Shown here piece after piece: positions 1 through 54,877 of a stretch of 64,000 nt of DNA. This DNA comes from Candidatus Harrisonbacteria bacterium RIFCSPHIGHO2_02_FULL_42_16 (lineage in GTDB: Bacteria > Patescibacteriota > Minisyncoccia > UBA6257 > 02-FULL-45-10c), in the NCBI GenBank assembly GCA_001818695.1, contig MHJG01000009.1:309-64308 (forward strand), written 5' to 3'. Both the position numbers and the translations under genes were made by a program. The notes under the pieces are model-generated. The model made no database searches. It was given only the letters and a program-made list of their open reading frames with translations, and was not told the origin of the DNA. Numbering within the stretch: the stretch's first letter is position 1; each line of letters begins with the position of its first letter.

Positions 1-357
1 TACCGCGCTGGCGGCCAACAGCAAGGACTTTCCGGCGCAAGAGAAGCGCATCCGTTCTGCCAAGGAGTAATTTCCGGCAAAATTACCATTAATACTGATA
101 TAAAATTTACGGGTCCGGCGACAGATGTAATCAGAGCGCAAATTCCTTCTGGTTCTGTTTCCGGATCTGTCTGCACCAGCTGTAAAAATAACGCCAGCCA
201 AAAAGAAGTCCGCGGCGAATGCTCTTGCAACGAAGGTTACTTTGGATTCATTGATTCTATCCAAAGCGGAAGCAGTAAATGCCTAACCCAAGACGAGTGC
301 AAAAACAAAGGATATGTAATCGGTGCCGACGGCAAAAAATGCATACCGAAACCATAA
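1..357 (+). CDS. 3' partial CDS: cysteine-rich secreted protein C-terminus (EGF-like Cys spacing)
   Basis: Frame 1 is open from base 1 to TAA at 355-357. Repeated C-x-x-C / C-x-C spacing is present (..CTSCKNN..CSCNEGYFG..KCLTQDECKNKGY..KCIPKP*). The track ORF 279..572 is in a different frame. Confidence 0.35.
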   Translation, partial: YRAGGQQQGLSGAREAHPFCQGVISGKITINTDIKFTGPATDVIRAQIPSGSVSGSVCTSCKNNASQKEVRGECSCNEGYFGFIDSIQSGSSKCLTQDECKNKGYVIGADGKKCIPKP

Positions 358-363
358 TAAATT

Positions 364-9504: not shown

Positions 9505-10029
9505 TTAGCCAATATTAGCTGTAATATTTTGTACATCGTCGTGCTCTTCCAGCGCCGCGATTAAATCCGACAATTTTTTCTTATTTTTATCGGAAATTTG
9601 TTGCGGGAATTTTGGCTTCCACTCCCCGTCTTTTTTTTCGAAGGCCCAGAGAACGGTTCCGGGATTCGCTATCTTAGCGCCGTTTTCAGACAAAATATGT
9701 TTTATTTCTGAAATAGTGCGGTTGCGATTGTCGGTAATCGCTTCAATTATCAAGGCTGCGCCTTCCGGGCCGTAGGCCTCAACGGTTAGGTCTTCCAGAT
9801 TTTTTTCTTCCGATGCTTTGCTGATTGCTCTTTCAATATTTTCCTGCGGCACATTGTTTTCCTTGGCTTTTTCCATAGCGGAACGGAGCCGGGGATTGAA
9901 ATCCGGATTGGATTCGGTTTTCGCCGCCGCCGAAATTGCTTTAAGCAGTTTGGAAAAAAGTTGGCCGCGTTTTTTGTCAGCCACGCCTTTTTGGTTTTTG
10001 ATTTGAGACCATTTATTATGTCCAGACAT
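9505..10029 (-). CDS. yebC: YebC/PmpR family protein (shortened, 174 aa)
   Basis: HNKWSQIK.. N-terminus and ..HDDVQNITANIG C-terminus typical of YebC. The middle region is shorter than canonical (about 240 aa). Confidence 0.8.
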   Translation of the reverse strand: MSGHNKWSQIKNQKGVADKKRGQLFSKLLKAISAAAKTESNPDFNPRLRSAMEKAKENNVPQENIERAISKASEEKNLEDLTVEAYGPEGAALIIEAITDNRNRTISEIKHILSENGAKIANPGTVLWAFEKKDGEWKPKFPQQISDKNKKKLSDLIAALEEHDDVQNITANIG

Positions 10030-10760: not shown

Positions 10761-12449
10761 ATGGTTCAGGAAAACGATAGCGCTAAGCTAAAGGTTATTT
10801 TAGAAAAATCTCGGAGAGAAGCAGAGGAGCGGGACGCGCAACGACGCGCCGTTAAGGCGGGTGTTTTGTATATTAATTTGGCGGCCCAGCCGGTTGAGAC
10901 CGACGCTTTGGAATTGATTCCGGAAAAAACAGCCAGAGATGTTCAAGCGGCCACCATAGAAAAAAAAGGAGACCGGGTGGTGTTGGCGGCGTTCAATACG
11001 GACGAGCCAAAAACAAAAAAACTTATTGAGGGGCTCGCTTTTAATGGCTTAAAACTTAAATTATTTATTTCTTCATTGTCCAGCTTGGAACGGGCTTGGG
11101 AATTTTATAAATATACCGTTAAAAAAACCGGACCAATTACCGGGCGGATTGATATTGACAAAGAACGGCTCGCGGGCTTGGTTAAAAGATTGGTTGAACT
11201 GCCGATTGTCAAAAAAGAGATAGATAATTTTGATTTCAAAAAGTTGCCTACCGCCCAGATATTGGAAATTGTGCTGGCCGGCGCGCTTAGCAGTAGGGCT
11301 TCCGATATTCACTTTGAGCCCTCCCGTCTGGCAGTCAAGCTCCGTTATCGGATTGATGGCGATTTGAATGATGTAATGGATAATTTAAAATTACCCATTT
11401 ATAACCATATTGTGTCTCGCGTAAAATTATTGTCTAATTTAAAACTTAATGTCCGGGATGAGGCGCAGGACGGGCGATTTACCATCGGACTGGGAAAAAA
11501 AGAAATAGAGCTTAGGGTGGCGGTAGCGCCTTCGGAATTCGGCGAAGTGATTGTGATGCGCGTATTGGACCCGGACGCCATCAATTTAAGTTTGGAGGAT
11601 TTGGGATTTCGAAAAGATGACTTGGAAATAATTTTGTCCGAACTTAAAAGGCCTAACGGCATGATTCTTAATACCGGTCCGACTGGTTCCGGCAAAACTA
11701 CCACCCTTTACGCGTTTTTAAAATATAAAAATTCTCCGGAAATAAAAATTATTACCATAGAAGACCCGATTGAATATCATTTGGACGGCATTGAACAAAC
11801 CCAGGTTGATTTGAAAGCGAATTATAATTTTGCCAATGGCCTTAAATCCATAATGCGTCAAGACCCGGACGCCATTCTTATTGGCGAAATTCGGGATAAA
11901 GAAACCGCCGCTATCGCTATTCAATCCGCGCTTACCGGACATTTGGTTTTTTCCACGGTGCACGCCAATCAGGCCGCCGGCGCCATTCCCCGGTTGATTG
12001 ATTTGGGAGTAAGGCCGACCAGCATCGGACCATCGCTTAATTTGATTATTGCCCAACGTTTGGTTAAAAAATTATGCCCGAAATGCAAAATCGGGAAGAA
12101 ATTAGAGCCAAAAGAAAAATCCGCTTTGGAAAAATTTTTGGCTCATTTGCCGAAAAGAGTTAACCGGGACGGATATAAAAATTTTTCCGTTTTTGAATCG
12201 GCGGGCAAGAAAAATTGCAAAGAATGCGCCGGCGTCGGCTATAAAGGAAGAGTCGGCATTTATGAATTATTGCAGGTTACCAAAGAAATTGAGAATTTAA
12301 TGAATAAAAAAGCCGGCGAAGCGGATATTTATGATTTTGCCGTTAACCAAGGAATGGTGACTATGCAGCAGGACGGAATTTTGAAAGTGATTTCCGGAAT
12401 CACTACAATGGAAGAGGTTGAAAAATTAACCGGCCCGATAAATATATAA
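10761..12449 (+). CDS. GspE/PilB family type IV pilus / type II secretion assembly ATPase
   Basis: Walker A NTGPTGSGKTTTLYA, GspE_N-like N-terminus, C-terminal tetracysteine (CPKC...CKEC). Confidence 0.85.
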   Translation: MVQENDSAKLKVILEKSRREAEERDAQRRAVKAGVLYINLAAQPVETDALELIPEKTARDVQAATIEKKGDRVVLAAFNTDEPKTKKLIEGLAFNGLKLKLFISSLSSLERAWEFYKYTVKKTGPITGRIDIDKERLAGLVKRLVELPIVKKEIDNFDFKKLPTAQILEIVLAGALSSRASDIHFEPSRLAVKLRYRIDGDLNDVMDNLKLPIYNHIVSRVKLLSNLKLNVRDEAQDGRFTIGLGKKEIELRVAVAPSEFGEVIVMRVLDPDAINLSLEDLGFRKDDLEIILSELKRPNGMILNTGPTGSGKTTTLYAFLKYKNSPEIKIITIEDPIEYHLDGIEQTQVDLKANYNFANGLKSIMRQDPDAILIGEIRDKETAAIAIQSALTGHLVFSTVHANQAAGAIPRLIDLGVRPTSIGPSLNLIIAQRLVKKLCPKCKIGKKLEPKEKSALEKFLAHLPKRVNRDGYKNFSVFESAGKKNCKECAGVGYKGRVGIYELLQVTKEIENLMNKKAGEADIYDFAVNQGMVTMQQDGILKVISGITTMEEVEKLTGPINI

Positions 12450-12597
12450 AAACCTTTGTTCTGTGGGCAAGTCCCGTTAAGGGAAAAGTGGAACTTTTTT
12501 AAATAAATTTAAAAAAGGTTAGAATTGTCTTAAGGATAGACCTCGCCTGAGCCAAGTCGTCCATTAAGAATAATTCCCGCCCACAGAACAAAGGTTT
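12449..12597. repeat. 19-bp perfect long-range inverted repeat (AAACCTTTGTTCTGTGGGC / GCCCACAGAACAAAGGTTT) enclosing about 110 nt with internal palindromes
   Basis: Read directly at 12449-12468 and 12579-12597. The interior contains CTTTTTTAAATAAATTTAAAAAAG near-palindrome. Confidence 0.6.
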
Positions 12598-12665
12598 CTA
12601 TAAAATAAAAACTTAAACTGCTATTTTGGTAGTATAGCATAAAAAAAGTAGTATGTCAACCCCCA

Positions 12666-16163: not shown

Positions 16164-16359
16164 TGATTTAATGAAGAGAGTAAATTTTTTAAAGCATCTT
16201 AAAAAGGAGAAATGTCTTCTTTTGCGGGAAGGCGCTAGGCACAGCGTCTTTTTTAATCCAAAAATCAGACAAACATCAACGGTTCCAAGACATAATGAAA
16301 TTAATAATTTTCTCGCCAGAAAAATTTGTCGCGATTTAGGAGTAAGAGAGGTAAAATAA
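16147..16359 (+). CDS. type II toxin HicA-like mRNA interferase
   Basis: LKHLKKEKCLLLREGARHSVFFNP..STVPRHNEI...ICRDLGV is a HicA/YcfA pattern with Gly-x-His. It overlaps hicB by 17 nt. Confidence 0.6.
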   Translation: MQFRFNDLMKRVNFLKHLKKEKCLLLREGARHSVFFNPKIRQTSTVPRHNEINNFLARKICRDLGVREVK

Positions 16360-16364
16360 TTTAT

Positions 16365-17255
16365 ATGAAGAAGTTATTGCTTATTGACGCCAATTCGCTT
16401 ATTCATCGGTGTTTTCACGCGCTTCCTCCGCTGACCACGCCTAAGGGTGAGCCGATTAACGCGGTGTACGGGTTGTCCAGCATTCTTTTGAAGATTTTGC
16501 GGGAGCACCAGCCGGATTATGTGGCGGCGGCTTTTGACCGGCCGGAACCGACTTTTCGAGACGAGATTTTTAAAGAATATAAAGCCCATCGTCCGCCGAC
16601 CGCCGATACTCTTGTGCCGCAGCTTAAAGAAGCCCACAAAACATTTGAAAAATTTGGAATCAAAGTGGTGGAAAAAGCCGGTTTTGAGGCGGATGATGTC
16701 GTGGGAACGTTGGCCGAGCGATTTAAGGATTCGGAAGCCCTTCGGCAAGCTCAGGGTGATGACTTTGAGCTCAAAGTCATCATATTCTCCGGCGACAAAG
16801 ATAATTTACAGCTTATAGACGACGACAGAGTAGTGGTGGAACTTTTGAAAACTGGCGTCAGTAAAACCGTTACTTATAACAAGGCATTTTTTCTCCAGAC
16901 CTACGGATTTTCTCCGGAGCAATTAGTGGATTATAAGGCGCTGGTGGGCGACGCTTCGGATAATATTCCGGGCGTGATGGGAATCGGCCCGAAGGGCGCG
17001 ACCGATTTAATTAAGGAATACGGCTCGGTAGAAAAAATTTATGAAGAAGTCGGCTTGATTTCCAAAAAGGTTTTGCAGGAAAAATTGGAAAAAAATCGCG
17101 ACAGCGCTTTTTTATCAAAAAAATTGGCAACGATAAAACGCGATGTGCCGTTGGAAATAAATTTGAATGACTTAAAACAAGGCAGAATGAGCAAGGAAGA
17201 ACTCAAAAAATACTTTGAAGAGTTGGGATTTAAGAGTTTGACAGAAAGATTGTAA
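16365..17255 (+). CDS. 5'-3' exonuclease (Pol I N-terminal FEN domain as a stand-alone ORF)
   Basis: LLIDANSLIHRCFHA..., FEADDVVGTLA, IFSGDKDNLQL, and a helix-hairpin-helix region. Start taken at MKKLLL (SD upstream). Confidence 0.85.
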   Translation: MKKLLLIDANSLIHRCFHALPPLTTPKGEPINAVYGLSSILLKILREHQPDYVAAAFDRPEPTFRDEIFKEYKAHRPPTADTLVPQLKEAHKTFEKFGIKVVEKAGFEADDVVGTLAERFKDSEALRQAQGDDFELKVIIFSGDKDNLQLIDDDRVVVELLKTGVSKTVTYNKAFFLQTYGFSPEQLVDYKALVGDASDNIPGVMGIGPKGATDLIKEYGSVEKIYEEVGLISKKVLQEKLEKNRDSAFLSKKLATIKRDVPLEINLNDLKQGRMSKEELKKYFEELGFKSLTERL

Positions 17256-18024: not shown

Positions 18025-18074
18025 TATAAATTATCTACTATCTATGCGATCGCATAGATAGTAGATAATTTATA
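18025..18074. repeat. 50-bp perfect palindrome (left copy) TATAAATTATCTACTATCTATGCGATCGCATAGATAGTAGATAATTTATA
   Basis: Read directly. The core 38 bp is identical to the right copy except at one central base. Confidence 0.9.
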
Positions 18075-18094: not shown

Positions 18095-18676
18095 TTATTG
18101 CAATTGTTTTATAGTTCCGGTTTTGCTTATGGCAAAAATTTCTATATAAGGAAGAATATTCCAGCGCTGAAGATCGTTAAAAAATTCTTCCGGCAAAATT
18201 GTTTTTCCAATCCAAACGCTTTTTTGGAGCATTCTAAATTTCAGATTTTTTAATGCCTCTCTTAACCAATTACGCCCCATCTTTTTAGTTTCTGGTATAT
18301 CAAAGGCGACTATTTTAATTTCATTTGATCGTTCTATTTTATAATTTGGTTTGGAATTATATTTTTTCTTTATCATTTCACTTTTACCCCTTTCTGTAAT
18401 TTTCCAAAAAGTGGCGCCGGTTTTATTTTTTTCCTTTATAATTAAGCCAGCAGTTTTTAATTTGCATAGCAATTTACTGATTCGCTGTCTTTCTTCTAAG
18501 TTTTTAATAGTTTTTTGTAAAATTTGTTTCCTTTCCGGAATAAGAGATTTCATGCCCTTCATCCTTCGATATGTTTCGGTGTAACCAAAATAAGATATGG
18601 TATTTAAAATATCTTTGGTAATCATATCCCCAGCTTGAATTAACTTTAGAATCGTTAATGTTATATCGCCTTTCAT
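18095..18676 (-). CDS. hypothetical DNA-binding protein: N-terminal winged-helix, C-terminal Cas2/VapD-like motif (tentative, PaaX-like architecture)
   Basis: 193 aa. The C-terminal KIVAFDIPETKKMGRNWLREALKNLKFRMLQKSVWIGK resembles the Cas2 core (YDI...RR..L...G.R.Q.SVF). The gene is flanked by the two palindromes. Confidence 0.45.
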   Translation of the reverse strand: MKGDITLTILKLIQAGDMITKDILNTISYFGYTETYRRMKGMKSLIPERKQILQKTIKNLEERQRISKLLCKLKTAGLIIKEKNKTGATFWKITERGKSEMIKKKYNSKPNYKIERSNEIKIVAFDIPETKKMGRNWLREALKNLKFRMLQKSVWIGKTILPEEFFNDLQRWNILPYIEIFAISKTGTIKQLQ

Positions 18677-18724: not shown

Positions 18725-18766
18725 AATTATCTACTATCTATGCGACCGCATAGATAGTAGATAATT
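18725..18766. repeat. 42-bp near-perfect palindrome (right copy) ..TTATCTACTATCTATGCGACCGCATAGATAGTAGATAA..
   Basis: Read directly. One central mismatch relative to the left copy (GCGATCGC vs GCGACCGC). Confidence 0.9.
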
Positions 18767-18793: not shown

Positions 18794-20317
18794 ATGTTTG
18801 CAGATTTTAATCTTAAAGAAAAATTTAAAGAACTGAAAAAACAAGACAAGAAAATTCCAAAAGACCCCTCGGCCGCGCTCGGGGCAAGTTATTTTGATTT
18901 GGGCGTGGCATTTTGGATGCTTAATCCCGACGAAAAAGAATATACAGCGGAATTTTTAAGCAAGAAATATCTTAATAAAGAATACAACCCTTCGGTTGGC
19001 TCAGGGTTAAAGCAACTTTATGAAGTTGCTTTAAAAAAGTTAAAAGAATATAAATTGGAAGGGCTTTTTTATGATGTGGAAATGCCGCTGATTGAGGTAT
19101 TGGCGGAGATGGAATCGTTGGGCGTGAAGTTGAATGTGGGTGGCTTGAATAGCTTGGAAAAGAAATTAGAAAAAAATTTAAGCGAGCTGGCGAAGAAAAT
19201 TTATAAAGAAGCCGGCGCGCCGTTTAATATCAATTCGCCGAAACAGTTGGGAGAAATGCTTTTTCAAAAACTTGGCATTGACGCCGCTGGCGTTAAAAAA
19301 ACCAAAGGCGGCGCGATTTCTACCGACGTAGATACGCTTTTGACTATCAAGGACCGCCATCCGGTTGTTAAATATCTTTTGGAATATCGCGAATTATTCA
19401 AATTGCAAACAACTTATGTTCGGCCATTGCAGGCGCTCGCAGACAAAAAAGGCAGAGTGCGTACAACCTATATCCAAACCGGGACTTCTACCGGCCGGTT
19501 AAGTTCGCAGAACCCTAATTTACAAAATATACCGATTGGAAATAATTTAGCAACGGAATTGCGGAAATGTTTTGTGGCGGAAAAAGGATATTCGTTTATT
19601 TCTTTTGATTATTCGCAAATTGAATTGAGGGTATTAGCTTCGCTTTCCGGCGACCCCAAAATGATGGAAGCGTTTAATAATGATTTGGATATTCATAAAA
19701 TGACGGCGGCAAATGTTTTTAATAAACCGTTAAGAGAAGTTACGCCGGAAATGCGGCGGCTGGCGAAGACATTAAATTTCGGAGTGGTGTATGGAATGGG
19801 CGCGAACGCGTTTGCTAAAACCAGCGGTTTAAGCGTAACCGAAGCCCGTAAATTTATAGATGAGTATTTCAACGATTTTAAAAAAATAAAAGTATGGCAG
19901 GAAGAAATTAAAGCGCAGGCGCGGACTTTTGGTTATGTTACTAATCTAAATGGCCGCCGCCGATGGCTTTTGCAGGCGACCTCAATGTTCCGCGGAGAAG
20001 CCGCGGAAGCCGAACGGGCGGCAATCAATATGCCAGTGCAGGGATTGGCGGCGGATATTATTAAAATCGCGATGGTAAAAATATCAAAAGAAATTAAAAA
20101 ACAGAAATTAGAAAACAGCATAAAAATGCTTTTGACGATTCACGACGAATTGCTGTTTGAAATTAAGGACGAGGCGCTGGAAGAAGCCGTAAAAATTATT
20201 TCCGGAATAATGGAATCCGCTTATGAATTAGAAGTGTCGGTAAAAGTAACGGTTAAGGTTGGCAAGAACTGGGGAGAATTAAGCGCTTTTTTGAAAAGTG
20301 ATATTTTGATGATATAA
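18794..20317 (+). CDS. polA: DNA polymerase I, polymerase domain (with vestigial 3'-5' exo remnant) as a separate ORF
   Basis: Motif A DYSQIELR, motif B RRLAKTLNFGVVYG, motif C HDELLFE, O-helix. The N-terminal roughly 110 aa match only the end of the 3'-5' exo-like domain. Confidence 0.85.
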   Translation: MFADFNLKEKFKELKKQDKKIPKDPSAALGASYFDLGVAFWMLNPDEKEYTAEFLSKKYLNKEYNPSVGSGLKQLYEVALKKLKEYKLEGLFYDVEMPLIEVLAEMESLGVKLNVGGLNSLEKKLEKNLSELAKKIYKEAGAPFNINSPKQLGEMLFQKLGIDAAGVKKTKGGAISTDVDTLLTIKDRHPVVKYLLEYRELFKLQTTYVRPLQALADKKGRVRTTYIQTGTSTGRLSSQNPNLQNIPIGNNLATELRKCFVAEKGYSFISFDYSQIELRVLASLSGDPKMMEAFNNDLDIHKMTAANVFNKPLREVTPEMRRLAKTLNFGVVYGMGANAFAKTSGLSVTEARKFIDEYFNDFKKIKVWQEEIKAQARTFGYVTNLNGRRRWLLQATSMFRGEAAEAERAAINMPVQGLAADIIKIAMVKISKEIKKQKLENSIKMLLTIHDELLFEIKDEALEEAVKIISGIMESAYELEVSVKVTVKVGKNWGELSAFLKSDILMI

Positions 20318-20327
20318 TAAATAGAAA

Positions 20328-21650
20328 ATGCGGAAGTTTTTCAAAAATTTTAGGCAATATCTGAAATCGCCGGAGGTGAAAATGATGTGGCTGTTTTTGT
20401 TTTTGGTGTTGTTGATCGTGGCGATTGATATTTTTTTTCTTGAGCCGCTTTGGGCTGGCGTCAGCGCAACCATTTTAGTTTCCGCAGGCATTGTTATTTT
20501 GTTTGTTAATTTCCGTTCGGCAAAAACCACCGTTCAATTGCGGCTGGAAAAATCGCGGCTGGATAATGTAATCGCCGGCATAGATGATGGAATTATTATT
20601 TATGATGAAAATTTTCAGGTTTTGCTTTTTAATCCGGCCGCCGAAAAGATTTTTAATGTTAAAAAAGAAGCGTTGACAAGCGGCAAGCTTTCTCCGGAAA
20701 GCGTTCAAAATCCGAATTTATCCGTTTTAGCCAAAGTAATTTTTCAGTCGCTGGCGCCTTTGGTTGTGCTTCAATCGCCGGAGGGGGTCTATCCGCAGGT
20801 GGCGGATATTTCTTTTGAAGAACCGCGGCTTCAATTAAGAGTGTTAACCGACAGGATATTGGATGAAAACGGGCAAGTAACGGCATTTATAAAAATTGTC
20901 CGCGATCAGACACGGGAAGTGGAACTTTTGCAATCCAAAAGCGATTTTATCACCGTTGCCGCCCATCAGCTTAGAACGCCGCTTTCGGCGGTTAATTGGT
21001 CATTGGAATCGCTACAAAAAGAAAATCTTAATGGCGGCCAGAAGGAACTGGCGGAAACCGGATTAAGCGCCGCGAGAAATCTTTCCAAAATCGTGGAGGA
21101 TTTGCTTAATGTTTCTAAAATTGAAGGCGGCAAGTTCGGTTATAATTTTCAGCAGCTGGATATAGTGAAATTTTTGCAGTCGGCAGTTGAGCAGGCCTCT
21201 GTTGTCGCTAAGGATTATAAGGCGAGCGTTTATTTGGAGCCGCCGAAAGAACCGTCCATTATTTTGGAAGCCGATTTGGAACGGTTGGGTTTGCTGATGT
21301 CTAATCTTTTGGAAAATGCCATAAAATACAATGTGGAAAACGGCAAGGTGACGGTTAGCGTTGAGCGTAGGACAGACGCCCCCTTTATTCAAGTTAATGT
21401 CGCTGATACCGGAGTGGGCATTCCTCAGGAAGCGATGAATAAGATTTTCACTAAATTTTTCCGGGCGGAGAATGTGGCGGAAAAAGAAACAGAAGGGTCC
21501 GGTCTCGGCTTATATATCGCAAAAAATGTCGTCAATCGGCACGGTGGCCAGATTTGGGCGGAATCGGTTGAAGGACGGGGCGCGATTTTTCACTTTACTT
21601 TGCCAACCGACCCGCGATTGATACCGCAACGCGAGATAGCCAATAGTTAA
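20328..21650 (+). CDS. sensor histidine kinase (2 TM, PAS-like, HisKA + HATPase)
   Basis: H-box AAHQLRTPLSAV, N-box NLLENAIKYN, G-boxes DTGVGI / GSGLGLYIAK. No adjacent response regulator. Confidence 0.85.
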   Translation: MRKFFKNFRQYLKSPEVKMMWLFLFLVLLIVAIDIFFLEPLWAGVSATILVSAGIVILFVNFRSAKTTVQLRLEKSRLDNVIAGIDDGIIIYDENFQVLLFNPAAEKIFNVKKEALTSGKLSPESVQNPNLSVLAKVIFQSLAPLVVLQSPEGVYPQVADISFEEPRLQLRVLTDRILDENGQVTAFIKIVRDQTREVELLQSKSDFITVAAHQLRTPLSAVNWSLESLQKENLNGGQKELAETGLSAARNLSKIVEDLLNVSKIEGGKFGYNFQQLDIVKFLQSAVEQASVVAKDYKASVYLEPPKEPSIILEADLERLGLLMSNLLENAIKYNVENGKVTVSVERRTDAPFIQVNVADTGVGIPQEAMNKIFTKFFRAENVAEKETEGSGLGLYIAKNVVNRHGGQIWAESVEGRGAIFHFTLPTDPRLIPQREIANS

Positions 21651-24295: not shown

Positions 24296-24328
24296 TTAGG
24301 GTATAGGGTTTAGGGTATAGGTTATAGG
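24296..24328. repeat. G-rich TAGGG-type repeat block (intergenic copy)
   Basis: ttagggtatagggtttagggtataggttatagg. Confidence 0.7.
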
Positions 24329-24342
24329 AAAAAGAGTCAATG

Positions 24343-24412: not shown

Positions 24413-24625
24413 ATGGCGGATAATCAGAAGGGGAAGAAAAAAAAGGATGGTGGGAAGAAGGCCGGCCGGAACAAACGCTCCGTGGAGCGTTATTACAATT
24501 TCGGCGGATACGGCGGCGGTCCGGTGGCGCGCAAGCTTCGGCGGATTATCCGGTCGTCCGGTTTCGCCGAAGCGATGCGCTGGGCCGAGGAGCGCGGCGA
24601 AGTGGGAACGCTCCGCCATTTATAA
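24413..24625 (+). CDS. small basic Lys/Arg/Gly-rich protein encoded in a GC-rich (GC3-rich) patch; function unknown
   Basis: MADNQKGKKKKDGGKKAGRNKRSVERYYNFGGYGGGPVARKLRR... Codon third positions are mostly G/C, unlike the rest of the window. Consensus promoter, strong SD and terminator. Confidence 0.4.
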   Translation: MADNQKGKKKKDGGKKAGRNKRSVERYYNFGGYGGGPVARKLRRIIRSSGFAEAMRWAEERGEVGTLRHL

Positions 24626-24716
24626 GCAGAAAGGAAATTCGGTTCGCTGGATCGAACGCGCGGAGAAGCGCGCGTATGAGAAGTAGAACAAGGTTGCGTC
24701 CGCCTAAGACGTAATA

Positions 24717-24773
24717 AAAGCCCTTCCGACATTACCGTTACGGTAATCGTTCGGAGGGGCTTTTTGTTTTTTT
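24717..24773 (+). terminator. strong intrinsic terminator (GCCCTTCCGAC...GTTCGGAGGGGC + T9)
   Basis: aaaagcccttccgacattaccgttacggtaatcgttcggaggggctttttgttttttt. Confidence 0.6.
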
Positions 24774-24806: not shown

Positions 24807-25385
24807 ATGATTTATTCCGTAAAAGGATTGCTACGTCTTAAGAAACCTTCTTTTTTTGTGGTGGAGGTTGGCGGGCTGGCGTTTAAAATAAACAGTTCGG
24901 CTAATGCGCTGAAAAGTTTGCCGCGAGAAGGAGAAATAGTCAATGTTTTTACTTATCTTCATGTGCGCGAAGATGCTTTGGAGCTATACGGATTTTTAGA
25001 CGAAGCCGAACTTAATTTATTTTTATTGCTAATCGGAATTTCCGGAATCGGACCCAAATCCGCGCTTAGCATTTTGGGAATTGATAAAATAGAAAAATTA
25101 AAATCGGCGATTATTGAAGGCCGGCCGGAACTTTTGACTAAGGCGTCCGGAATAGGAAAAAAGACCGCTGACCGGATTATTTTGGAGCTTCGGACAAAAC
25201 TTAAACAGGAAGGAGCGGGCAGGATAGTCGGGCTGATGGAATCGGACCAGGACATTATTGAGGCGCTTTGCAATCTTGGCTATGCCAGAAACCAAGCCAG
25301 AGAAGCGCTTTCCAAAATTGATTCTCAAATTACCGCCGTAGATGAAAGAATTAAATTGACGTTAAAATTGTTGAAAAAAAATTAG
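24807..25385 (+). CDS. ruvA: Holliday junction DNA helicase RuvA
   Basis: OB-fold N-terminus IYSVKG..., two HhH motifs (GIGPKSA, GIGKKTA), domain III. Confidence 0.9.
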   Translation: MIYSVKGLLRLKKPSFFVVEVGGLAFKINSSANALKSLPREGEIVNVFTYLHVREDALELYGFLDEAELNLFLLLIGISGIGPKSALSILGIDKIEKLKSAIIEGRPELLTKASGIGKKTADRIILELRTKLKQEGAGRIVGLMESDQDIIEALCNLGYARNQAREALSKIDSQITAVDERIKLTLKLLKKN

Positions 25386-35388: not shown

Positions 35389-38300
35389 TTAGATTTTTTT
35401 GACCCCAATCCAAATTGGCTCTTCGTTAAGTTTTGAATTTAATTCCGCGTCAAATTTTCCGGTTTTTTTAAATTCAATTGATTTTGCGCCCACTTCTTTT
35501 TTAAGAAAATTCGCATTTTTTTCCAGCGTGGTCTTATACGCCTGGGTATCAATCATTAGCGCGATGGTGTCTTTGGGAATATAATTCGCGTCATGCCTGA
35601 GGCCCTGCACCATTCGTGCCAATTCTCTTAACAGTCCCTCTTCCTGAAGTTCGGGCGTAATTTTAAAATCCAGATTAACTTCATTTTTAATAACCATATT
35701 CCAATTAACTTTTTTTACGTTCACTTCATTTTTTATAACTTCTATCAATTCCGTGTCTCTTGCGTCAATTTTTGAACTTTTAATTTCCAGTGTTTGAAGC
35801 GGCTGGCGGACTTTAACGCCTTTTTCAGCGCGGAGCGCTAAGGCCAGGCCGGAAATTCGCCTAACTTCCTCCATTTTTTCCAAAAGCGAATAATCCATTT
35901 CTTTTTCATCGGCTTTGGGCCAGGCATCTAAATGTACCGAGTTTTTAATTTGCTGATTTTTATTTTTTGTTAAAGAAAGATAAAGAGCTTCAGCAAAGAA
36001 CGGCGTGAACGGAGCGATTAATTTGCTCAAAACAAAAAGCGAATAATAAAGGGTTTCGGAAGCCGATTTAAAGTCATTTTTATTTTTCGGTTTCTGCAAT
36101 CGGCTTCGGGAGCGCCGGATATACCACCTAGAAAGGTCGTCTACGAAGATTTCAATTGACTTGGCAGAGCCGCTAATGTCGTATTTTTCTAAATTTTCGG
36201 TTGCGTCCGCGGCGGTTTTATTAAGTTTTGATATAATCCAGCGGTCTAAAATATTTGTGCTTGGAGTCGGAAGCCGGGAGTTAGAAGTTTTTTCCGCGTA
36301 GGTATTCCAGAATACGAATGAATTATAAATAATCATTATAAATTTTCGCAAGGTTTTTCCCAAATCTAATTCGTCAAACACTTTCGGTTCTCCCGGAATC
36401 GTTTGGGTATAAAAATACCAGCGCAGGGTGTCTGCTCCGTATTTGTCCATCATTTCCCGCGGATTTATTGCATTACCTCTGGATTTAGACATTTTTTTTC
36501 CGAATTTGTCCAAAATATGGCCTTGAGTAACCACATTTAAATAGGGCGTGTTTTTTTTCAAAAGAGTGGCAATCGCCAGCAGGGAGTAGAACCAGCCGCG
36601 AGTTTGGTCGATTCCTTCGCTGATATAATCTGCCGGAAAAGCGAGCTGCTTATCAATTAAATCTTTATTTTCAAATGGGTAATGCCATTGGGCGTAGGGC
36701 ATGGCGCCGGAATCAAACCAGATATCGGCAACCTCTTTGACCCTTATCATTTTTCCGTCGCATTTAGCGCATTTTAAATGAATTTTATCCATATAGGGCC
36801 TATGTAAATCTAATTCTCCAACAGGATTATACGGCCAGTTATGCAATTCGGTTTTTTTAGCTATGCCATTAACTTTTATATAATTTAGCTTTAAAATTTC
36901 TTCATTGGATAATCCCCGCATCGCTCCTTCCAAAACCCAAAGCGGGTCGCCATGACTGACAATCAAAATATTTTTTCCATTATAACGGGAATTGATGTCT
37001 ATAATCGCTTCCAGCATTCTTTTTTTCACTTCATTTAAATTTTCTCCGCCCGGACAAATTTTAGTAAAGCGTTCCAGGTCGTTTTTGTGAAACTTATGGT
37101 GTTCTTCAACCGGGCGCCAATTAAAAATTCCGCAGTTTATTTCCGAAAGCCGTTTATCTATTATTACTCTGGATTTTGTGATTTTGGCGGCTATTTTTGC
37201 GGTTTCTTTGGTGCGGTTATACGGGGAAGCAAAAATAAAATCCAGTTTTTTATTGCCAAGCTCCTTTTTTAAATTTATAGCCGCCGATTCCGCGTTTTTT
37301 TTGCCTTTTATGGTAAGCCGGGAAATGTTTTTTCCGTGTTCCGGTCCGGAGGCGATAAGGTTGTTTAAATTATGTTCCGCTTCTCCATGCCGAAGTAGCC
37401 AAAAATTATTTTGGGAATATCTTAATTTGTCCAAATCCTCCAAACTTCCGATTACTTCCGTATGTCCACACTGTTCTTTTGTTCGCATGGGCGCGTTCGC
37501 ATTTCGCGAGGCCTTAGCCGAGCGAGCGCCATTCGCGTGCTGCCAGATTGGCAACGGCGTGCCCCAATAGCGATTTCTGGAAATTGACCAGTCCTTTACT
37601 TCCTTAAGCCATTCGCCGAACCGCCCCTGTTTTATATGTTCCGGAACCCAGTTAATTTTTTTGCCGTTGGCAATGATTTCATCGCGAAGCTTGCTCATTT
37701 CTATAAACCAGGAAAATTTCGCCATATAAAGAAGAGGGGTGTCGCATCGCCAGCAGAACGGATATTCGTGTTCATAACTGCCCGCTTTTAAAAGCGCTTT
37801 GGTTTTTTCTAAATGGCTGACAATATCCCGGTCGGCTGTTTTGGCCGGTTTGCCGGCTCCGGGCAAACCCTTTGCAACCATACCCCTGTCATCTACTGTA
37901 ATTGGGATATCATTAATTTTTAACTTTTCGCTTTTAACGCTTAATACTTCCTGCATAAGTTTCATATCGTTTTCGCCGAAAGCCGGAGCGATATGTACCA
38001 AGCCGGTGCCTTCTTCAGTAGAAACGAAGTCGGCGCCGCATACTTTAAAAAATTTGCTGTTTTTTTGCCAAGCCCCTTTTACGTTAAATAGCTGTTTATA
38101 TTTTAAGCCGATTAGTTTTTTTCCGGACATTTTTTCAATCACTTCATATTTAACATTATCTATTGTCGGCGGAGCGTTATATGACCACAAATATTCATTG
38201 CCTATCTTATATTTGGTATAGGTAAGCTTCGGATTAACCGCAATAGCGACATTTGCCGGCAAAGTCCACGGCGTGGTGGTCCAAATCAAAAGGTATTCAT

Positions 38301-38991
38301 TACCTTTTGATTTGCCCGCCGAAGCTTTAGTGAGGGAGGGTTTTAATTCAAATTTTACATATACTGACGGGTCTTTCACCTTATGATACGCGCCAGGCAT
38401 TCCAAGTTCGTGGCTGGAAAGAGGCGTTTGGCAGCGGGTGCAGTAGGGAACAATTTTAAATGATTGGGTTAGCAGGCCGCGCTTGGCGATTTCTTTGAAA
38501 ATCCACCACAAACTTTCTATATAATCTGGCTTATAAGTAATATAAGGATTTTTTAAGTCCAGCCAAAAGCCGATTCGGTCCGTAAATTTTTCCCATTCGT
38601 CCTGATATTTCCAAACCGACGCCTTGGCTTTTTCATTGAATTCCGCGATGCCGAATTTTTCAATTTCTTGTTTATTTTTCAAACCCAGCTCTTTTTCCAC
38701 CTCAATTTCTACCGGCAATCCTTGCGTGTCCCAGCCGGCTTTCCGGCGGACAAAAAATCCGCGCATGGTTTTATACCGGCAAATAATATCTTTAAAGGCG
38801 CGGCCTTCCGCGTGGCCCATGTGCGGCTGGCCGTTGGCTGTCGGTGGCCCTTCAAAAAACCTGAATACTTTCCGCGTTAATCCGCGCATATCCGCAGTTT
38901 GAGTTTTCTCAAAAATCTTATTTTCCTTCCAGAATTTAAGGACTTTTTCCTCTATCTCCGGCAATTTAAATTCTTTAAGCTTTTGTAACAT
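35389..38991 (-). CDS. ileS: isoleucyl-tRNA synthetase (type 2) with an in-frame histidine-phosphatase (PGAM-like) domain insertion
   Basis: HMGH (PHMGHAEGRA), CP1 editing domain, KMSKS (KMSKSRGN), anticodon-binding C-terminus. 1200 aa. Insert of about 237 aa lies between RYWGTPLPIWQHANG and ELDLHRPYMD. Confidence 0.9.
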   Translation of the reverse strand: MLQKLKEFKLPEIEEKVLKFWKENKIFEKTQTADMRGLTRKVFRFFEGPPTANGQPHMGHAEGRAFKDIICRYKTMRGFFVRRKAGWDTQGLPVEIEVEKELGLKNKQEIEKFGIAEFNEKAKASVWKYQDEWEKFTDRIGFWLDLKNPYITYKPDYIESLWWIFKEIAKRGLLTQSFKIVPYCTRCQTPLSSHELGMPGAYHKVKDPSVYVKFELKPSLTKASAGKSKGNEYLLIWTTTPWTLPANVAIAVNPKLTYTKYKIGNEYLWSYNAPPTIDNVKYEVIEKMSGKKLIGLKYKQLFNVKGAWQKNSKFFKVCGADFVSTEEGTGLVHIAPAFGENDMKLMQEVLSVKSEKLKINDIPITVDDRGMVAKGLPGAGKPAKTADRDIVSHLEKTKALLKAGSYEHEYPFCWRCDTPLLYMAKFSWFIEMSKLRDEIIANGKKINWVPEHIKQGRFGEWLKEVKDWSISRNRYWGTPLPIWQHANGARSAKASRNANAPMRTKEQCGHTEVIGSLEDLDKLRYSQNNFWLLRHGEAEHNLNNLIASGPEHGKNISRLTIKGKKNAESAAINLKKELGNKKLDFIFASPYNRTKETAKIAAKITKSRVIIDKRLSEINCGIFNWRPVEEHHKFHKNDLERFTKICPGGENLNEVKKRMLEAIIDINSRYNGKNILIVSHGDPLWVLEGAMRGLSNEEILKLNYIKVNGIAKKTELHNWPYNPVGELDLHRPYMDKIHLKCAKCDGKMIRVKEVADIWFDSGAMPYAQWHYPFENKDLIDKQLAFPADYISEGIDQTRGWFYSLLAIATLLKKNTPYLNVVTQGHILDKFGKKMSKSRGNAINPREMMDKYGADTLRWYFYTQTIPGEPKVFDELDLGKTLRKFIMIIYNSFVFWNTYAEKTSNSRLPTPSTNILDRWIISKLNKTAADATENLEKYDISGSAKSIEIFVDDLSRWYIRRSRSRLQKPKNKNDFKSASETLYYSLFVLSKLIAPFTPFFAEALYLSLTKNKNQQIKNSVHLDAWPKADEKEMDYSLLEKMEEVRRISGLALALRAEKGVKVRQPLQTLEIKSSKIDARDTELIEVIKNEVNVKKVNWNMVIKNEVNLDFKITPELQEEGLLRELARMVQGLRHDANYIPKDTIALMIDTQAYKTTLEKNANFLKKEVGAKSIEFKKTGKFDAELNSKLNEEPIWIGVKKI

Positions 38992-50998: not shown

Positions 50999-52252
50999 TT
51001 ATAATGTCAAATTGCCGTTAGCTACTAATTGAAGACCTTTTTTCTTTTTTTGTAGTAAATTTATATACGCCGCGGCGGCAATCATGGCGGCGTTGTCGGT
51101 ATTATATTCATAGTCGGGGACTACAAAATTTAGTTTTAAGTCAAAAGTTGTAAGTTTTAAGGTTTCGCGCAAAGCGCGATTGGCGGAAACTCCGCCGCAT
51201 AATAATACGGATTTTGCTTTGAATTCTTTAGCGGCGCGGAGAGTTTTTTGCGTTAATACATCAATTACCGCTTTTTGGAAACTGGCGGCTACATTAGCAA
51301 GAAAATTATTTTTTTCCGAAACCTCCACAGCCGGCTTGGCGCGGCCCCCGCTATGCTGGGCAAGGCGGCGAGGACTAGCGAGTGAGTCGCTGGATGAACG
51401 AAGCGGGTTGAGGGAAGAATAATTTTCTTGCGAATGATCGCGGAGATAATAGAGAACCGAAGTTTTTAATCCCGAGAAACTGAAATTATACACATCTTTT
51501 ACATTTTTAGGATTTAGTAATGGGCGGGGGAATTTAATCGCGTCGGGATTGCCCCTGGCGGCGAGTTTCTGTATTTCCGGGCCGCCGGGATAAGGAAGTT
51601 TCAGCATTCGCGCCACTTTATCAAAGGCCTCTCCGGCAGCGTCATCCAATGTCTCGCCGAGCTTGGTCCATTTTGTGATGCTTTTCATATTTAATAAAAT
51701 AGTGTGCCCTCCGCTTACAATCAAGGCGACGGCGGGGAATTTTATTTTAGGGTTTAGGGTAGAGGGTTTAGGGTAGAGGGTTTTTGTATTTTTTTTAGAA
51801 ATTAGAAATTTGGAATTAGAAATTTCAGCTGTTTTTTTTGGTAAAAAACAGCTGTATAGATGCCCTTCCATATGGTTTACTCCGATAAGCGGCTTATTTA
51901 GTTTTTTGGAAAGTTCTTCGGTAAAATTGATTCCGGTCCAAAGCGCCGGTTCCAATCCGGGCCCGACAGTGGCAGCGATATAATCGGGGTTTAGGCCATT
52001 CGGCTCTGAGAGCCTCAGGCTCGTAGAGGTAGAGGGTTTAGGGTTTAGGGTTTTAAAAATTTTAGGCAAATTTTTCAGATGTTCTCTTTTCGCCAAATTT
52101 GGCACCACGCCGCCGAATGGGCGATGAACCGCTATTTGGGAAGAAACGATATTTTTTAGAACTTGAAATTTCGGGGATTTTAAACCGCCGCCGCATTTTA
52201 CCAAAGCGATGGATGTTTCATCGCAAGATGTTTCTATAGCAAGAATTTTCAT
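50999..52252 (-). CDS. tsaD: tRNA N6-adenosine threonylcarbamoyltransferase TsaD (Kae1/Gcp family) with two in-frame repeat insertions
   Basis: IETSCDETS, HMEGHL, ALIVSGGHT, DDAAGEAFDK and other conserved motifs. 417 aa instead of about 340. Extra loops NPKPSTSTSLRLSEPNGLNP and PKKTAEISNSKFLISKKNTKTLYPKPSTLNPKIK are encoded by the G-rich repeats. Confidence 0.85.
   Translation of the reverse strand: MKILAIETSCDETSIALVKCGGGLKSPKFQVLKNIVSSQIAVHRPFGGVVPNLAKREHLKNLPKIFKTLNPKPSTSTSLRLSEPNGLNPDYIAATVGPGLEPALWTGINFTEELSKKLNKPLIGVNHMEGHLYSCFLPKKTAEISNSKFLISKKNTKTLYPKPSTLNPKIKFPAVALIVSGGHTILLNMKSITKWTKLGETLDDAAGEAFDKVARMLKLPYPGGPEIQKLAARGNPDAIKFPRPLLNPKNVKDVYNFSFSGLKTSVLYYLRDHSQENYSSLNPLRSSSDSLASPRRLAQHSGGRAKPAVEVSEKNNFLANVAASFQKAVIDVLTQKTLRAAKEFKAKSVLLCGGVSANRALRETLKLTTFDLKLNFVVPDYEYNTDNAAMIAAAAYINLLQKKKKGLQLVANGNLTL
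51748..51784. repeat. TTTAGGG/TAGAGGG G-rich repeat block inside tsaD (copy 1)
   Basis: ttagggtttagggtagagggtttagggtagagggttttt. Confidence 0.8.
52025..52053. repeat. TTTAGGG/TAGAGGG G-rich repeat block inside tsaD (copy 2)
   Basis: agaggtagagggtttagggtttagggtttt. Confidence 0.8.
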
Positions 52253-52256
52253 TTAG

Positions 52257-52328
52257 TAGTCCCGACGGGAATCGAACCCGTATTCCCACCGTGAAAGGGT
52301 GATGTCCTAGCCGTTAGACGACGAGACC
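52257..52328 (-). tRNA. tRNA-Glu (anticodon UUC)
   Basis: Minus strand GGTCTCG-TC-GTCT-AACGGCTA-GGAC-A-TCACC-CTTTCAC-GGTGG-GAATA-CGGGT-TCGATTC-CCCGT-CGGGACT-A. Anticodon loop CUUUCAC. 72 nt. The 3' end is 5 nt from the tsaD start. Confidence 0.75.
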
Positions 52329-52410
52329 GTGTTTTTTTACATCCTGGTCTCCATAATAAGGGAGTTTTATCAGATTTTCAATCCCACTATTTTAATCCTA
52401 TGATATAATG

Positions 52411-52680
52411 GGAGAGCCGGATTCAAACTAACATCAATTTAGTGAGCCAATTCCCGTCCAGATTCAAGGCACGAGGAAGCGCAGTGTGCCAGTAGGCACA
52501 TAAGCGACGAGCAACGAAGAAGATGGATTGGAATTGGCTCACCCGAAGGGAAGAGAGAATTTGGCCAATTTCTTTGTCACTCCTCGTCGGGGTGCTTACT
52601 AGCACGACCCCCTCGTCGTTCCTAGAACTTGGCTTAAATTATCTCTTTTAAATTTGACGGTAGTTTGAATTCGGCTCTCC
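52411..52680. ncRNA. candidate structured non-coding RNA (unknown class) with nested inverted repeats; strand undetermined
   Basis: Outer IR GGAGAGCCGGATTCAAACTA / TAGTTTGAATTCGGCTCTCC (1 mismatch), inner IR GTGAGCCAATTCC / GGAATTGGCTCAC, hairpin GGGGTGCT-tact-AGCACGACCCC, CUUCGG tetraloop on the minus strand. GC well above background. Ends 6 nt before the eno start. Confidence 0.3.
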
Positions 52681-52685
52681 TAAAT

Positions 52686-53936
52686 ATGAAAGCCGTGATA
52701 AAAAATATTTTTGCCGAAGAAATTTTGGACTCGCGTGGCAATCCTACTTTGAGGGTGGGGGTGGCAACCGGCGCCGGAACGGGCATTTTTTCCGTTCCTT
52801 CCGGAGCGAGTACCGGCAAATACGAAGCGCTGGAAAAGCGGGACAACGACCCAGAGCGATTCCGCGGATTGGGAGTTAAAAAGGCGCTTGCCGCGATTGA
52901 AAAGGAAATCGCGCCTTGTTTGAAAGGATTTTCGGTTTTAGAACAAAAAAAAATTGACCGGGCAATGATAAAATTGGACGGCACCCCAAATAAGCGGCGC
53001 TTGGGCGGAAATGCTCTTATTGGCGTCAGTATCGCGGTTGCCAAAGCTGGAGCTTTAGCGAGCAAAAAACCGTTGTATAAATATCTGCATGATTCTTTTT
53101 TCCCGAAAGAAAAAATGGTCGCGCCGAAATTGTATATGAATTTAATCAATGGCGGCAAGCACGCGAAGAATAATCTGGCTTTTCAGGAATACTTGGTTGT
53201 TCCGCAAACCAATTTCGTAAAGGATGCGTTGAAATTCGGTTGCCGGGTTTTGGCGGAATTAAAGAAAATCGTTGTCAAGAAATATGGTAAGGCATCTTTT
53301 GAGATTGGAGACGAAGGTGGATTGGCTCCGGCAATTAGCGATGTTGAAGAGCCGTTGCGTTTATTGGCGGAGGCGGCGCGCAAGGTCGGCGGATTAAAAT
53401 GGAAATTGGCGCTGGATGTGGCCGCCACCAGTTTTTATAAAAATAAAAAATACACCATTGCCGGAAAAAAATTACCTGCGGAAAAATTACTGGAATTTTA
53501 TAAAAAAATAATAAATAAATATCCTTTACTTTCAATTGAAGACCCTTTTCAGGAGGAGGATTTTAAAAATTTTTCCAGATTTAAAAAAGAAACGGAGAAA
53601 AATGGAGTTTTTATTGTTGGCGACGACCTCACCGTTACCAATCCCAACCGTTTGCGGAAGGCAATCTTTGAGCAAAGCATCGGCGGGGGGATTATTAAGC
53701 CGAATCAGATTGGCACCCTGACCGAAACAATTGAAGCGATAAATTTAGCTAAAAAAAATAGAATTAAAATAATAGTCAGCCATCGGAGCGGCGAAACCAA
53801 TGACGATTTTATCGGGGATTTGGCGTATGCCTGCGGAGCGTTTGGGATTAAAGCCGGCGCGCCCCAGCCAAAGGAACGGCTCGCAAAATATAACCGCTTA
53901 TTGGAGATACAACGAATAACGAATGTGTACGAATAA
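52686..53936 (+). CDS. eno: enolase
   Basis: MKAVIKNIFAEEILDSRGNPT..., SGASTGKYEA, and catalytic motifs. Start taken at the internal Met at 52686. Confidence 0.9.
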   Translation: MKAVIKNIFAEEILDSRGNPTLRVGVATGAGTGIFSVPSGASTGKYEALEKRDNDPERFRGLGVKKALAAIEKEIAPCLKGFSVLEQKKIDRAMIKLDGTPNKRRLGGNALIGVSIAVAKAGALASKKPLYKYLHDSFFPKEKMVAPKLYMNLINGGKHAKNNLAFQEYLVVPQTNFVKDALKFGCRVLAELKKIVVKKYGKASFEIGDEGGLAPAISDVEEPLRLLAEAARKVGGLKWKLALDVAATSFYKNKKYTIAGKKLPAEKLLEFYKKIINKYPLLSIEDPFQEEDFKNFSRFKKETEKNGVFIVGDDLTVTNPNRLRKAIFEQSIGGGIIKPNQIGTLTETIEAINLAKKNRIKIIVSHRSGETNDDFIGDLAYACGAFGIKAGAPQPKERLAKYNRLLEIQRITNVYE

Positions 53937-54082
53937 ACGAATATACTAATATATTAATAATAAAATGCTTAAAACTATTGTTAAGAAACAAGATTTGTTG
54001 TATCCGGAACTCAGTTATAAAATTATAGTTGATTCGTTTATTCGTAAATTAGTAATAATTCGTTATTCGATGATTTTATAAT

Positions 54083-54877
54083 ATGGCGTCAGTTGCGCAA
54101 ATAATCGCGACCATCGGGCCCGCGAGTAAAAATAAAAAAGCGATTAAAGAGATGATAAAACATCAAATGGATGCGGCGCGGCTTAATTTTTCCCACGGCA
54201 CTTATAAAGAACACGCTTATTACATAAAAACTATCCGGGCGGCCGCCAAAGAATTGAAAAGAAAGATTCTGATTATTCAGGATTTATCCGGGCCGCGGAC
54301 ACAGAGAGGCAAAGAACATTTTTTCAATAAAAAATCAAAGTCCTTGATAACCGCCAAAGATAAAAAGGATTTGCGGTTCGGATTGGAAAACGGCATTGAT
54401 TATGTCGCGATGTCTTATGTCGGCGGCGCGGAAGACATAAAATCCTTGCGGGCGCTGATGAGGTCATTTAAAAAAAATAAGCCGGTTATCGCTAAAATTG
54501 AACGGCGGGAAGCGGTAAAAAATATAGATGCCATTATTAAATCCGCGGACGCGATTATGGTGGCGCGCGGCGATTTAGGCAATGCTTTTCCGTTAGAAAA
54601 ACTGCCGTTTCTTCAGAAAATGATTATTCGGAAATGCAAAAAAGCGGAAAAGCCGGTGATTACCGCGACCCAAATGCTGCTCTCTATGGCGGAAAATCCG
54701 GAACCGACCCGCGCGGAAGTGGAGGATGTGGCGCAGGCAATTTTGGACGGTTCGGATGCAGTGATGCTTTCGGAAGAAACTGCTATCGGAAAATATCCGG
54801 CGGAAGCCGTGCGAGTGATGGAAAGGATTGTTTTGGAATCGGAAAAACACGAGCGATTTAAAATTCATAAATTATAA
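54083..54877 (+). CDS. minimal pyruvate kinase-like protein (TIM-barrel A domain only; no B-domain lid, no C-terminal domain)
   Basis: [33 protein letters not shown] motifs. Only 264 aa. Confidence 0.65.

Follow-up and report, generated by a model that had tools for sequence, protein, structure and literature searches.

A candidate family of MITE-like, RNA-folding elements in Patescibacteria-type genomes, with one copy directly upstream of an enolase gene

We analyzed a 272-nt element (positions 52410-52681) that lies directly upstream of the enolase gene eno in a 64,000-nt stretch of contig MHJG01000009.1 of Candidatus Harrisonbacteria bacterium RIFCSPHIGHO2_02_FULL_42_16. This whole stretch (positions 309 to 64,308 of the contig) is called the window, and coordinates refer to it unless another locus is named. 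The element has a genuine, conserved single-strand fold. We propose, with a probability of about one half, that it is a copy of a previously undescribed non-coding family of ~275 nt in Patescibacteria-type genomes, which would be dispersed like miniature transposable elements bounded by inverted repeats (MITEs), would fold as RNA, and would serve here as a self-contained eno leader. A preliminary description of the region had postulated a structured element of unknown class and had considered a lineage-specific non-coding RNA (ncRNA), a riboregulator of eno, or a MITE; it had also suggested a comparison with Rfam, a search for further copies, and a covariation analysis. Its general view is supported by the stability of the fold, the lack of any Rfam match, and the covariation between homologues. 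Of the three options, the MITE fits best, although not as a simple one: the copies are few and diverged, and their complex fold is kept by compensatory changes.

The element consists of a closing helix, P1, and a junction from which the arms P2, P3, and P4 extend. The outer inverted repeat, initially described as 20 bp (52412-52431 and 52660-52679), is in fact longer. Its arms comprise 30 nt (52411-52440 and 52651-52680) that are 87% complementary, and P1 has 32 pairs between 52410-52441 and 52649-52681 in the comparative structure obtained with RNAalifold. The outer ~19 nt of the 5' strand (GGAGAGCCGGATTCAAAC) represent a conserved terminus like that of a terminal inverted repeat (TIR), and the inner part covaries. 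The 3' strand ends 4-5 nt before the eno start codon at 52686, and not 6 nt before it as had been assumed. The inner repeat GTGAGCCAATTCC / GGAATTGGCTCAC, previously seen as 13 bp, extends to 24 nt in full (52442-52465 and 52519-52542). It forms the stem of the P2 arm (52442-52542), which also contains a distal hairpin (52484-52501) and an internal multiloop, in which the unpaired stretches CCAGAUUCAAGGC.CGA and GAGCAACGAAGAAG are conserved. P3 (52543-52549) is a mini-hairpin of 2-3 bp within the CCCGAAGGG hairpin (52543-52551), the minus strand of which reads cUUCGg. The P4 arm (52550-52648) is composed of a stem (52550-52580 and 52618-52648), internal loops carrying CCUCGUCG, which is repeated, and a distal hairpin (52589-52609; GGGGTGCT..AGCAC..CCCC). 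Both this hairpin and the minus-strand cUUCGg had been noted before and are present. All features are given for the plus strand, in which the element folds slightly better and in which an adjacent promoter-like box is oriented; this polarity is provisional.

The predicted free energy of the plus-strand RNA is -122.2 kcal/mol, compared to -74.3 +/- 4.9 kcal/mol for shuffled sequences (z = -9.8); the minus-strand RNA reaches -115.1 kcal/mol (z = -8.7). Among the inverted repeats of the window with arms no more than 500 nt apart, the element ranks third in length, and its outer arm does not occur a second time in the 64 kb (0.02 chance matches expected). The GC content is only modestly raised (0.476 versus 0.402 in the rest of the window, with 0.42-0.49 in local 200-nt windows). 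Therefore, the original argument that it lies far above the background is weak.

To find homologues, we used the spurious 60-aa open reading frame (ORF) on the minus strand of the element (52423-52605) as a probe against protein databases. Homologues could be recovered in this way because gene callers had annotated similar ORFs on other contigs. Full-length homologues are present at three other contigs or loci, termed L100 (a 6.8-kb contig), L101, and L102/L128, where L128 derives from the L102 organism but was recovered from another sample. A fifth homologue was seen as an ORF only (P0126). Four independent full copies form the basis of the evidence, together with one mini copy and one partial copy described below. 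These four share 69-85% identity and show only two or three single-base indels; their GC content follows that of the host, with flanks ranging from 0.38 to 0.56 across hosts. L102 and L128 differ at only two of 821 nt, both within P3 (alignment columns 467 and 472). These represent the two sides of one P3 pair, CCCUCCGGGG to CCAUCCGAGG, which turns C:G into A.A. On the plus strand, the P3 loop is GAA(G) in the window, GAAA in L100, and UCCG in L102; the minus strand of two copies has UUCG at this place. The ~122-aa hypothetical proteins P0123-P0125 share the peptide ILSSLRVSQF with the spurious ORF (E = 4-10, possibly by chance); the 30 nt that are conserved best in the element match this peptide. 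An additional gene on one of the respective contigs encodes an IFT46-like product of eukaryote type.

The suggested covariation analysis was performed with the four homologous sequences on the RNAalifold structure, using 500 shuffles and slid alignments as controls. Compensatory double changes affect 25 of the 100 predicted pairs, compared to 10.7 +/- 2.2 in the shuffles, none of which reached 25, and 2-4 in the slid controls. A standard pair is formed in 94.8% of the cells (87.9% in shuffles and 34-44% in slid controls). The double changes are distributed over P1 (9 of its 32 pairs, with 96.9% of the cells paired), P2 (5), and P4 (11), and the long unpaired stretches are invariant across copies. 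G.U pairs outnumber A.C pairs by 23 to 8 (5:2, 7:3, 6:1, and 5:2 in the four copies), and the plus strand has a lower free energy than the minus strand in all four. Both observations favour the eno-sense strand as the folding strand, though in a suggestive way, since many of the G.U/A.C cells are inherited together. A candidate pseudoknot between CGACGAG and CUCGUCG was rejected: it shows no covariation, and L101 carries GGAGGAG opposite an unchanged CUCGUCG.

None of the homologues for which DNA is available (three loci) is located beside eno. The full copy in L100 lies ~70 nt past the stop codon of recG, on the recG strand, and faces a convergent Mg-chelatase/ComM-like gene. A profile search additionally revealed a mini copy of 62 nt on this contig (4446-4385, minus strand), within 2.7 kb of the full one. 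It consists of the termini only, the final 17 nt of the 3' arm being fused to 36 nt from the 5' arm, and retains a hairpin fold (z = -4.2). The mini copy begins at the TAG stop codon of an ftsH-like gene, ~150 nt before tRNA-Ile. Its 3' arm resembles the L102-type terminus (GGTCTCC) and its 5' arm is of the L100 type; it may be a recombinant of, or a deletion between, two copies. In L128, the full copy (393-670) is accompanied by a second, diverged copy ~270 nt upstream in the same orientation, of which only the 3' end is present before the contig ends; both copies lie within 1 kb. The L102/L128 element is placed between a terminator/promoter pair and a second copy. The L128 promoter (344-372, plus strand) is a perfect TTGACA-17-TATAAT sequence with an upstream TG and is found just after a terminator-like hairpin (263-283). 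It is aimed at two copies in tandem that have no protein gene between them, and would transcribe the strand opposite to the better-folding one and also opposite to the one that the promoter in the window faces. Upstream of the copies in the window and in L100 there are extended -10 boxes in plus sense. No terminator follows any of the copies.

When a covariance model of the 223-position core of the element was applied to the window and to 87 other loci (~0.6 Mb in total), no additional copy was detected. The search for further copies, which had been proposed as a test for a MITE, gave none in the rest of the 64 kb; additional or partial copies do exist in L100 and L128. In a metagenome collection, the exact 18-nt terminus had a single match to the same element, at the identical locus L095. 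The other 15 matches were single-arm hits in unrelated, mostly coding-looking sequence with nothing else of the element. Plasmid and phage collections gave no blastn match to the element, and pattern scans of viral contigs likewise did not reveal it, returning either nothing, chance matches in an integrase gene, or tRNA genes.

The two minus-strand ORFs noted at the outset, 52423-52605 (60 aa) and 52634-53158, are present but non-coding. A small protein gene or a locus similar to type I toxin-antitoxin systems could be envisaged, encoded by the 60-aa ORF or by a 42-aa ORF on the plus strand and with hok-type pairing between the 5' and 3' ends: both ORFs exist, the minus-strand ORF has 'homologues' in protein databases, and the 42-aa ORF contains a hydrophobic stretch. 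But substitutions are spread evenly over the codon positions of both ORFs (23/26/28 for 60 aa and 18/16/23 for 42 aa), ORF lengths and starts are inconsistent between copies (50, 60, 82, 86, and 102 aa), stops interrupt all six frames of every copy, and the ATG of the 42-aa ORF is not kept in L100. This pattern indicates a non-coding element, and we give hardly any credence to a gene product.

The comparison with Rfam was carried out at both stringent and permissive thresholds. With Rfam 15 at gathering thresholds, no family matches the element, RNase P, SRP, 6S, tmRNA, riboswitches, ribozymes, group I/II introns, and HEARO included. At E <= 10, the region 52200-52800 yielded the gene for tRNA-Glu and, apart from it, only sporadic matches at chance level that stay well under the gathering score, and nothing was found over the L100 or L101 elements at E <= 1. 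An RNase P CR-V-like motif (AGAACUUGGCUUA) and a GGAAGC motif like that of signal recognition particle RNA, both seen by eye, were dropped, as they are not conserved in the homologues.

The ends of the element resemble tRNAs. In copies of the L100/L101 type, the terminal 18 nt (GGAGAGCAGGATTCGAAC) equal, as reverse complement, the 3' ends of genuine tRNAs, covering T-loop, T-stem, and acceptor strand, for example in a phage tRNA-Tyr (L132, 14648-14729). Viral contigs contain 14 matches to GGAGAGCAGGATTCGAAC, several of them in tRNA clusters; besides L132, the viral contigs L135 (6092-6119) and L134 (1393-1461) carry it. The 5' flanks of L100 and L101 continue with TGGTGTG, the reverse complement of which resembles a CCA end. 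The element as a whole differs from a tRNA, the likeness being confined to the ~19 terminal nt. An intron-containing tRNA, an idea taken from PMC13011429, was rejected: the adjacent tRNA-Glu is all that ARAGORN and the Rfam tRNA model detect. Because there is no cloverleaf, and because the 'T-loop' is buried in a helix and has drifted to UUUGAAU in the window copy, where it is still paired, we read the tRNA-like termini as a probable clue to origin or mimicry and not as a tRNA gene.

At the eno locus, the gene order is leuS, tsaD, and tRNA-Glu on the minus strand, the element, and eno-pyk-gpmI on the plus strand. The tRNA-Glu(UUC) gene (52256-52328, minus strand; 52256-52381 with its promoter) is a neighbour outside the element and has its own promoter-like site, TTGAAA-17-TATTAT (52381-52353). 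The enolase gene (52686-53936, plus strand) is the first gene of its cluster and lacks a Shine-Dalgarno sequence; its product agrees at 100% identity with the enolase from a metagenome-assembled genome of Candidatus Harrisonbacteria, the next best enolases sharing only 58-63% of the amino acids. An extended -10-like box, TGATATAAT (52401-52409, plus strand), is the presumed eno promoter and ends 1 nt before the element; the TTTTCA-18-TATGAT site returned by a promoter scan overlaps it. The junction reads TGATATAAT, 1 nt, the element, TAAAT, and ATG, and no terminator-like site is present between the element and the start codon (P1 ends at 52681). The eno-pyk spacer (53899-54083) contains a 52-nt imperfect inverted repeat of CGAATAA/TTATTCG repeats that is 73% complementary.

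A Shine-Dalgarno sequence is absent from most genes of the window, and a TATAAT-like box is found 4-9 nt before their ATG, as in the genes at 6194-8692, 9505-10029, 20328-21650, and 24807-25385. Short-leader or leaderless mRNAs thus seem to be normal here, which suggests that such mRNAs are widespread in this genome. In the nearest eno relatives (58-63% amino-acid identity), the element is missing, and the distance of a -10-like box to the ATG is 5-19 nt. The respective eno starts read TGATATACT, 19 nt, ATG in L001/L098; TGATAAAAT, 7 nt, ATG in L099; and TATAAA, 5 nt, ATG in L097. Searches with blastn, nhmmer, and the covariance model did not find the element at the eno loci of 80 Patescibacteria (GTDB species representatives) or next to the three closest enolases. 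The only close relative, L095, represents the same locus with 100% identity.

In the reading that we favour, the element is inferred to be mobile, co-transcribed, and processed. It would have inserted into an eno gene that otherwise has a short leader or none, downstream of the -10 box and ahead of the start codon, and an insertion at this position would cause it to be co-transcribed as a 275-nt eno leader. This insertion could be tolerated because the element pairs almost wholly with itself, which would keep the A/U-rich start region of eno accessible. With its 32 bp, the P1 helix is the type of duplex that is cut by RNase III, although no RNase III gene (rnc) was seen in the window, and processing may shorten the leader. 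The self-pairing and the plausible RNase III site apply equally to the ncRNA alternative considered below. The family would then consist of non-autonomous miniature mobile insertions under selection to fold as single strand.

A number of features agree with this MITE-like interpretation. According to the criteria in PMC10969869 (section 2.1), MITEs are shorter than 500 bp, have no coding capacity, and carry TIRs of ~4-30 bp. The element measures 272 nt, and the outer ~19 nt of its 30-nt arms are conserved between copies. Its length, TIRs, intergenic AT-rich sites, predicted stable folds of the transcript, and partial copies agree with the MITEs published there, whose description also comprises decaying direct repeats and RNase III cleavage at Correia inverted repeats (PMC10969869). 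The settings of the copies are unrelated, and their orientation relative to promoters is not fixed. An extra copy is present in L128 and a termini-only mini copy in L100. Moreover, the element is missing from the eno relatives and fits exactly between -10 box and ATG in the window.

Other observations weigh against mobility. No target-site duplication, shared or per copy, was found at the five complete copies including the mini copy (for the truncated second L128 copy, the 3' flank alone was read); the flanks are ATG|..|TAA, GCA|..|TAT, GTG|..|TAA, AGA|..|AAT, and ATA|..|TGG. TA is only slightly overrepresented: it follows the 3' end in three of six copies and precedes the 5' end in one of five. 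According to PMC10969869, the flanking direct repeats of MITEs decay with age. The copy number is low, with one copy in the 64-kb window, and no transposase, integrase, or reverse transcriptase is encoded by the window ORFs of at least 150 aa. Furthermore, the conserved unpaired stretches and the covarying internal arms exceed the needs of a transposase substrate and suit a functional RNA, the G.U excess and the consistently better-folding strand hint at one functional strand, and the perfect consensus promoter of L128 could mean a dedicated ncRNA transcription unit.

The main alternative is a trans-acting ncRNA family, either stand-alone or processed, that has paralogues in some genomes and for which the position next to eno would be incidental. 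The ~210-nt three-arm core with its conserved loops would be the functional RNA and P1 a processing stem, like the stems flanking rRNAs. The strong covariation in all helices together with the invariance of the long unpaired stretches argues for this alternative, as do the near absence of indels in hosts of such different GC content, which the GC content of the element follows, the strand bias, and the missing target-site duplications. Promoters would also be at hand, in the form of the L128 consensus sequence that follows a terminator and leads into two tandem copies, and of the extended -10 boxes adjoining the window and L100 copies. But the promoters disagree on the strand: the better-folding strand, which the promoter in the window also faces, is not the one read by the strong L128 promoter. 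No copy is followed by a terminator, although a dedicated terminator would be unnecessary if P1 frees the RNA from any carrier transcript. The RNA was also not found at the 80 eno-centred loci or in the remaining window, which is a test of low power. In addition, decay of an RNA gene explains the mini copy with its pairing termini less easily than a deletion within a mobile element would, and the location, with a -10 box 1 nt before the element and an ATG 4-5 nt behind it, resembles an insertion. The lineage-specific ncRNA of the preliminary description remains the main contender, but we regard it as less probable than a MITE-like family.

A riboregulator of eno was another of the initial suggestions; it would act in cis on the eno-pyk-gpmI operon, be it as a riboswitch, a thermosensor, or a protein-binding leader. 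The element is indeed highly structured, is preceded by a promoter-like box and followed by the eno ATG in the sense of eno without an intervening terminator, and offers alternative pairings such as that of CGACGAG with either copy of CUCGUCG. This alternative pairing does not covary, as described above for L101, and there is no expression platform: neither a terminator nor a sequestered Shine-Dalgarno sequence is present, the latter being absent from most genes here anyway. Above all, the homologues are not found upstream of eno or of any other common gene, and the closest eno relatives do without such a leader. A riboregulator or riboswitch specific for eno is therefore not supported by the sequences compared, and we consider it very unlikely.

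The tRNA-like termini allow for one more scenario, in which the element is specific to ultra-small bacteria, either as an RNA module that is intron-like and insulates itself or as an abundant ncRNA acting in trans, and is excised by means of ends that mimic tRNA ends. The ends resembling acceptor and T-arm would pair as the 32-bp helix, and RNase III or RNase P/Z could cut the element precisely from any transcript. Cleavage after the tRNA-like end (UCUCCUA-A|AUAUG) would restore a nearly leaderless eno mRNA, which seems to be the usual form in this genome, and would set free the conserved core of three arms, a stable RNA with a function of its own. The L128 consensus promoter driving two tandem copies is consistent with this scenario. 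We regard it as unlikely, if less so than a riboregulator of eno.

Several other features of the window deserve mention. A second element with a long stem is located at 12445-12602, between a gene for a T2SSE-type ATPase and ruvB. Its 24-nt arms are 96% complementary and enclose 110 nt with three hairpins, its fold is very stable (z = -9.7 for the plus and -10.4 for the minus strand), and it has no match in Rfam. Homology to the eno element was rejected and the two appear unrelated, because their local alignment score (20-21) is close to the shuffle mean (17.6 +/- 2.1). The same perfect 20-nt palindrome arm (AATTATCTACTATCTATGCG / CGCATAGATAGTAGATAATT) occurs at 18030-18072 and 18725-18766 and flanks a gene for a PaaX-like regulator (18095-18676, minus strand), possibly as an operator pair. 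This gene lies between genes for a 5'-3' exonuclease (16326-17255) and a DNA_pol_A protein (18794-20317), an arrangement that corresponds to a split PolA. Short telomere-like repeats of the TTTAGGG/TTAGGG type are found at 52034-52055 and 24297-24330, one set within tsaD, where it encodes a PKPSTLNPK-like repeat insert, and the other in a spacer upstream of a minus-strand ORF. The isoleucyl-tRNA synthetase (35389-38991, minus strand; 1200 aa) carries a His_Phos_1 domain inserted at residues 530-703. Finally, a GC-rich stretch within a spacer (24414-24720, GC content 0.56) folds strongly and is among the most structured 280-nt windows of the scan; it contains a small Arg/Lys-rich ORF followed by a terminator-like hairpin.

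Patescibacteria (Candidate Phyla Radiation) have tiny, streamlined genomes with very little non-coding DNA. The element occurs in several unrelated hosts, keeps its elaborate fold by compensatory changes, and is apparently located within transcription units. If the family is MITE-like, it could be the first structured family of this kind for the group, a marker of gene flow, and a system for studying how cells tolerate insertions in leaderless promoters. Alternatively, it would be an unrecognised functional RNA. Either way, an alignment and a covariance model are now at hand that can be applied to complete genomes and metatranscriptomes. The approach itself is of practical use, since spurious ORFs inside non-coding elements can find RNA homologues through protein databases.

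In the literature collection that we searched, MITE-like or comparable elements were not described for Patescibacteria in any paper, and the family is, judging from the searches described above, absent from Rfam and previously undescribed. With HEARO/IscB omega-RNA, ROOL, and GOLLD it has in common a long, ornate, covarying fold, a patchy distribution, and a variable context; in contrast to these, it matches no Rfam model, and no IscB/TnpB, reverse transcriptase, or recombinase gene is found beside any copy. The intervening sequences (IVS) of bacterial rRNA genes, along with rRNA processing stems, are another point of comparison. The ends of these inserted RNAs pair as a long helix, and their excision by RNase III leaves the flanks undisturbed. 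The two ends of the element likewise pair into a long helix, but IVS reside in rRNA helices, whereas the element is found in mRNA leaders, 3' regions, and non-coding spacers, and its cleavage is suggested by analogy.

Closer to a MITE-like family are ERIC/IRU, the RPE of Rickettsia, REP/REPIN, and the MITEs Nezha of cyanobacteria and Chunjie of Geobacter. Like the element, these are imperfect palindromes that fold as RNA or single-stranded DNA, are scattered in small or compact genomes, and are tolerated within transcription units; for Chunjie, 57 partial copies have been described (PMC10969869). They differ in that they are usually shorter, simple hairpins with a high copy number. REPINs moreover need RAYT transposases and a GTAG motif, and RPEs insert in-frame into genes, neither of which was seen for the element. 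The Correia elements of Neisseria (CREE/NEMIS), the archetype of bacterial MITEs, differ as well, with a length of 100-200 bp, more than 100 near-identical copies, a TA duplication, and promoters or IHF sites, compared to ~275 nt, few copies at 69-85% identity, no consistent duplication, a conserved, covarying, branched interior, and no known transposase partner for the element described here. Nevertheless, both are short, non-coding, and intergenic, have inverted repeats of ~26-30 nt, are often located directly upstream of genes with which they are, or in the present case would be, co-transcribed, and occur as partial or variant copies. In Correia transcripts, the inverted-repeat duplex is cleaved by RNase III (PMC10969869), and the predicted 32-bp P1 duplex of the element would represent a substrate of the same type.

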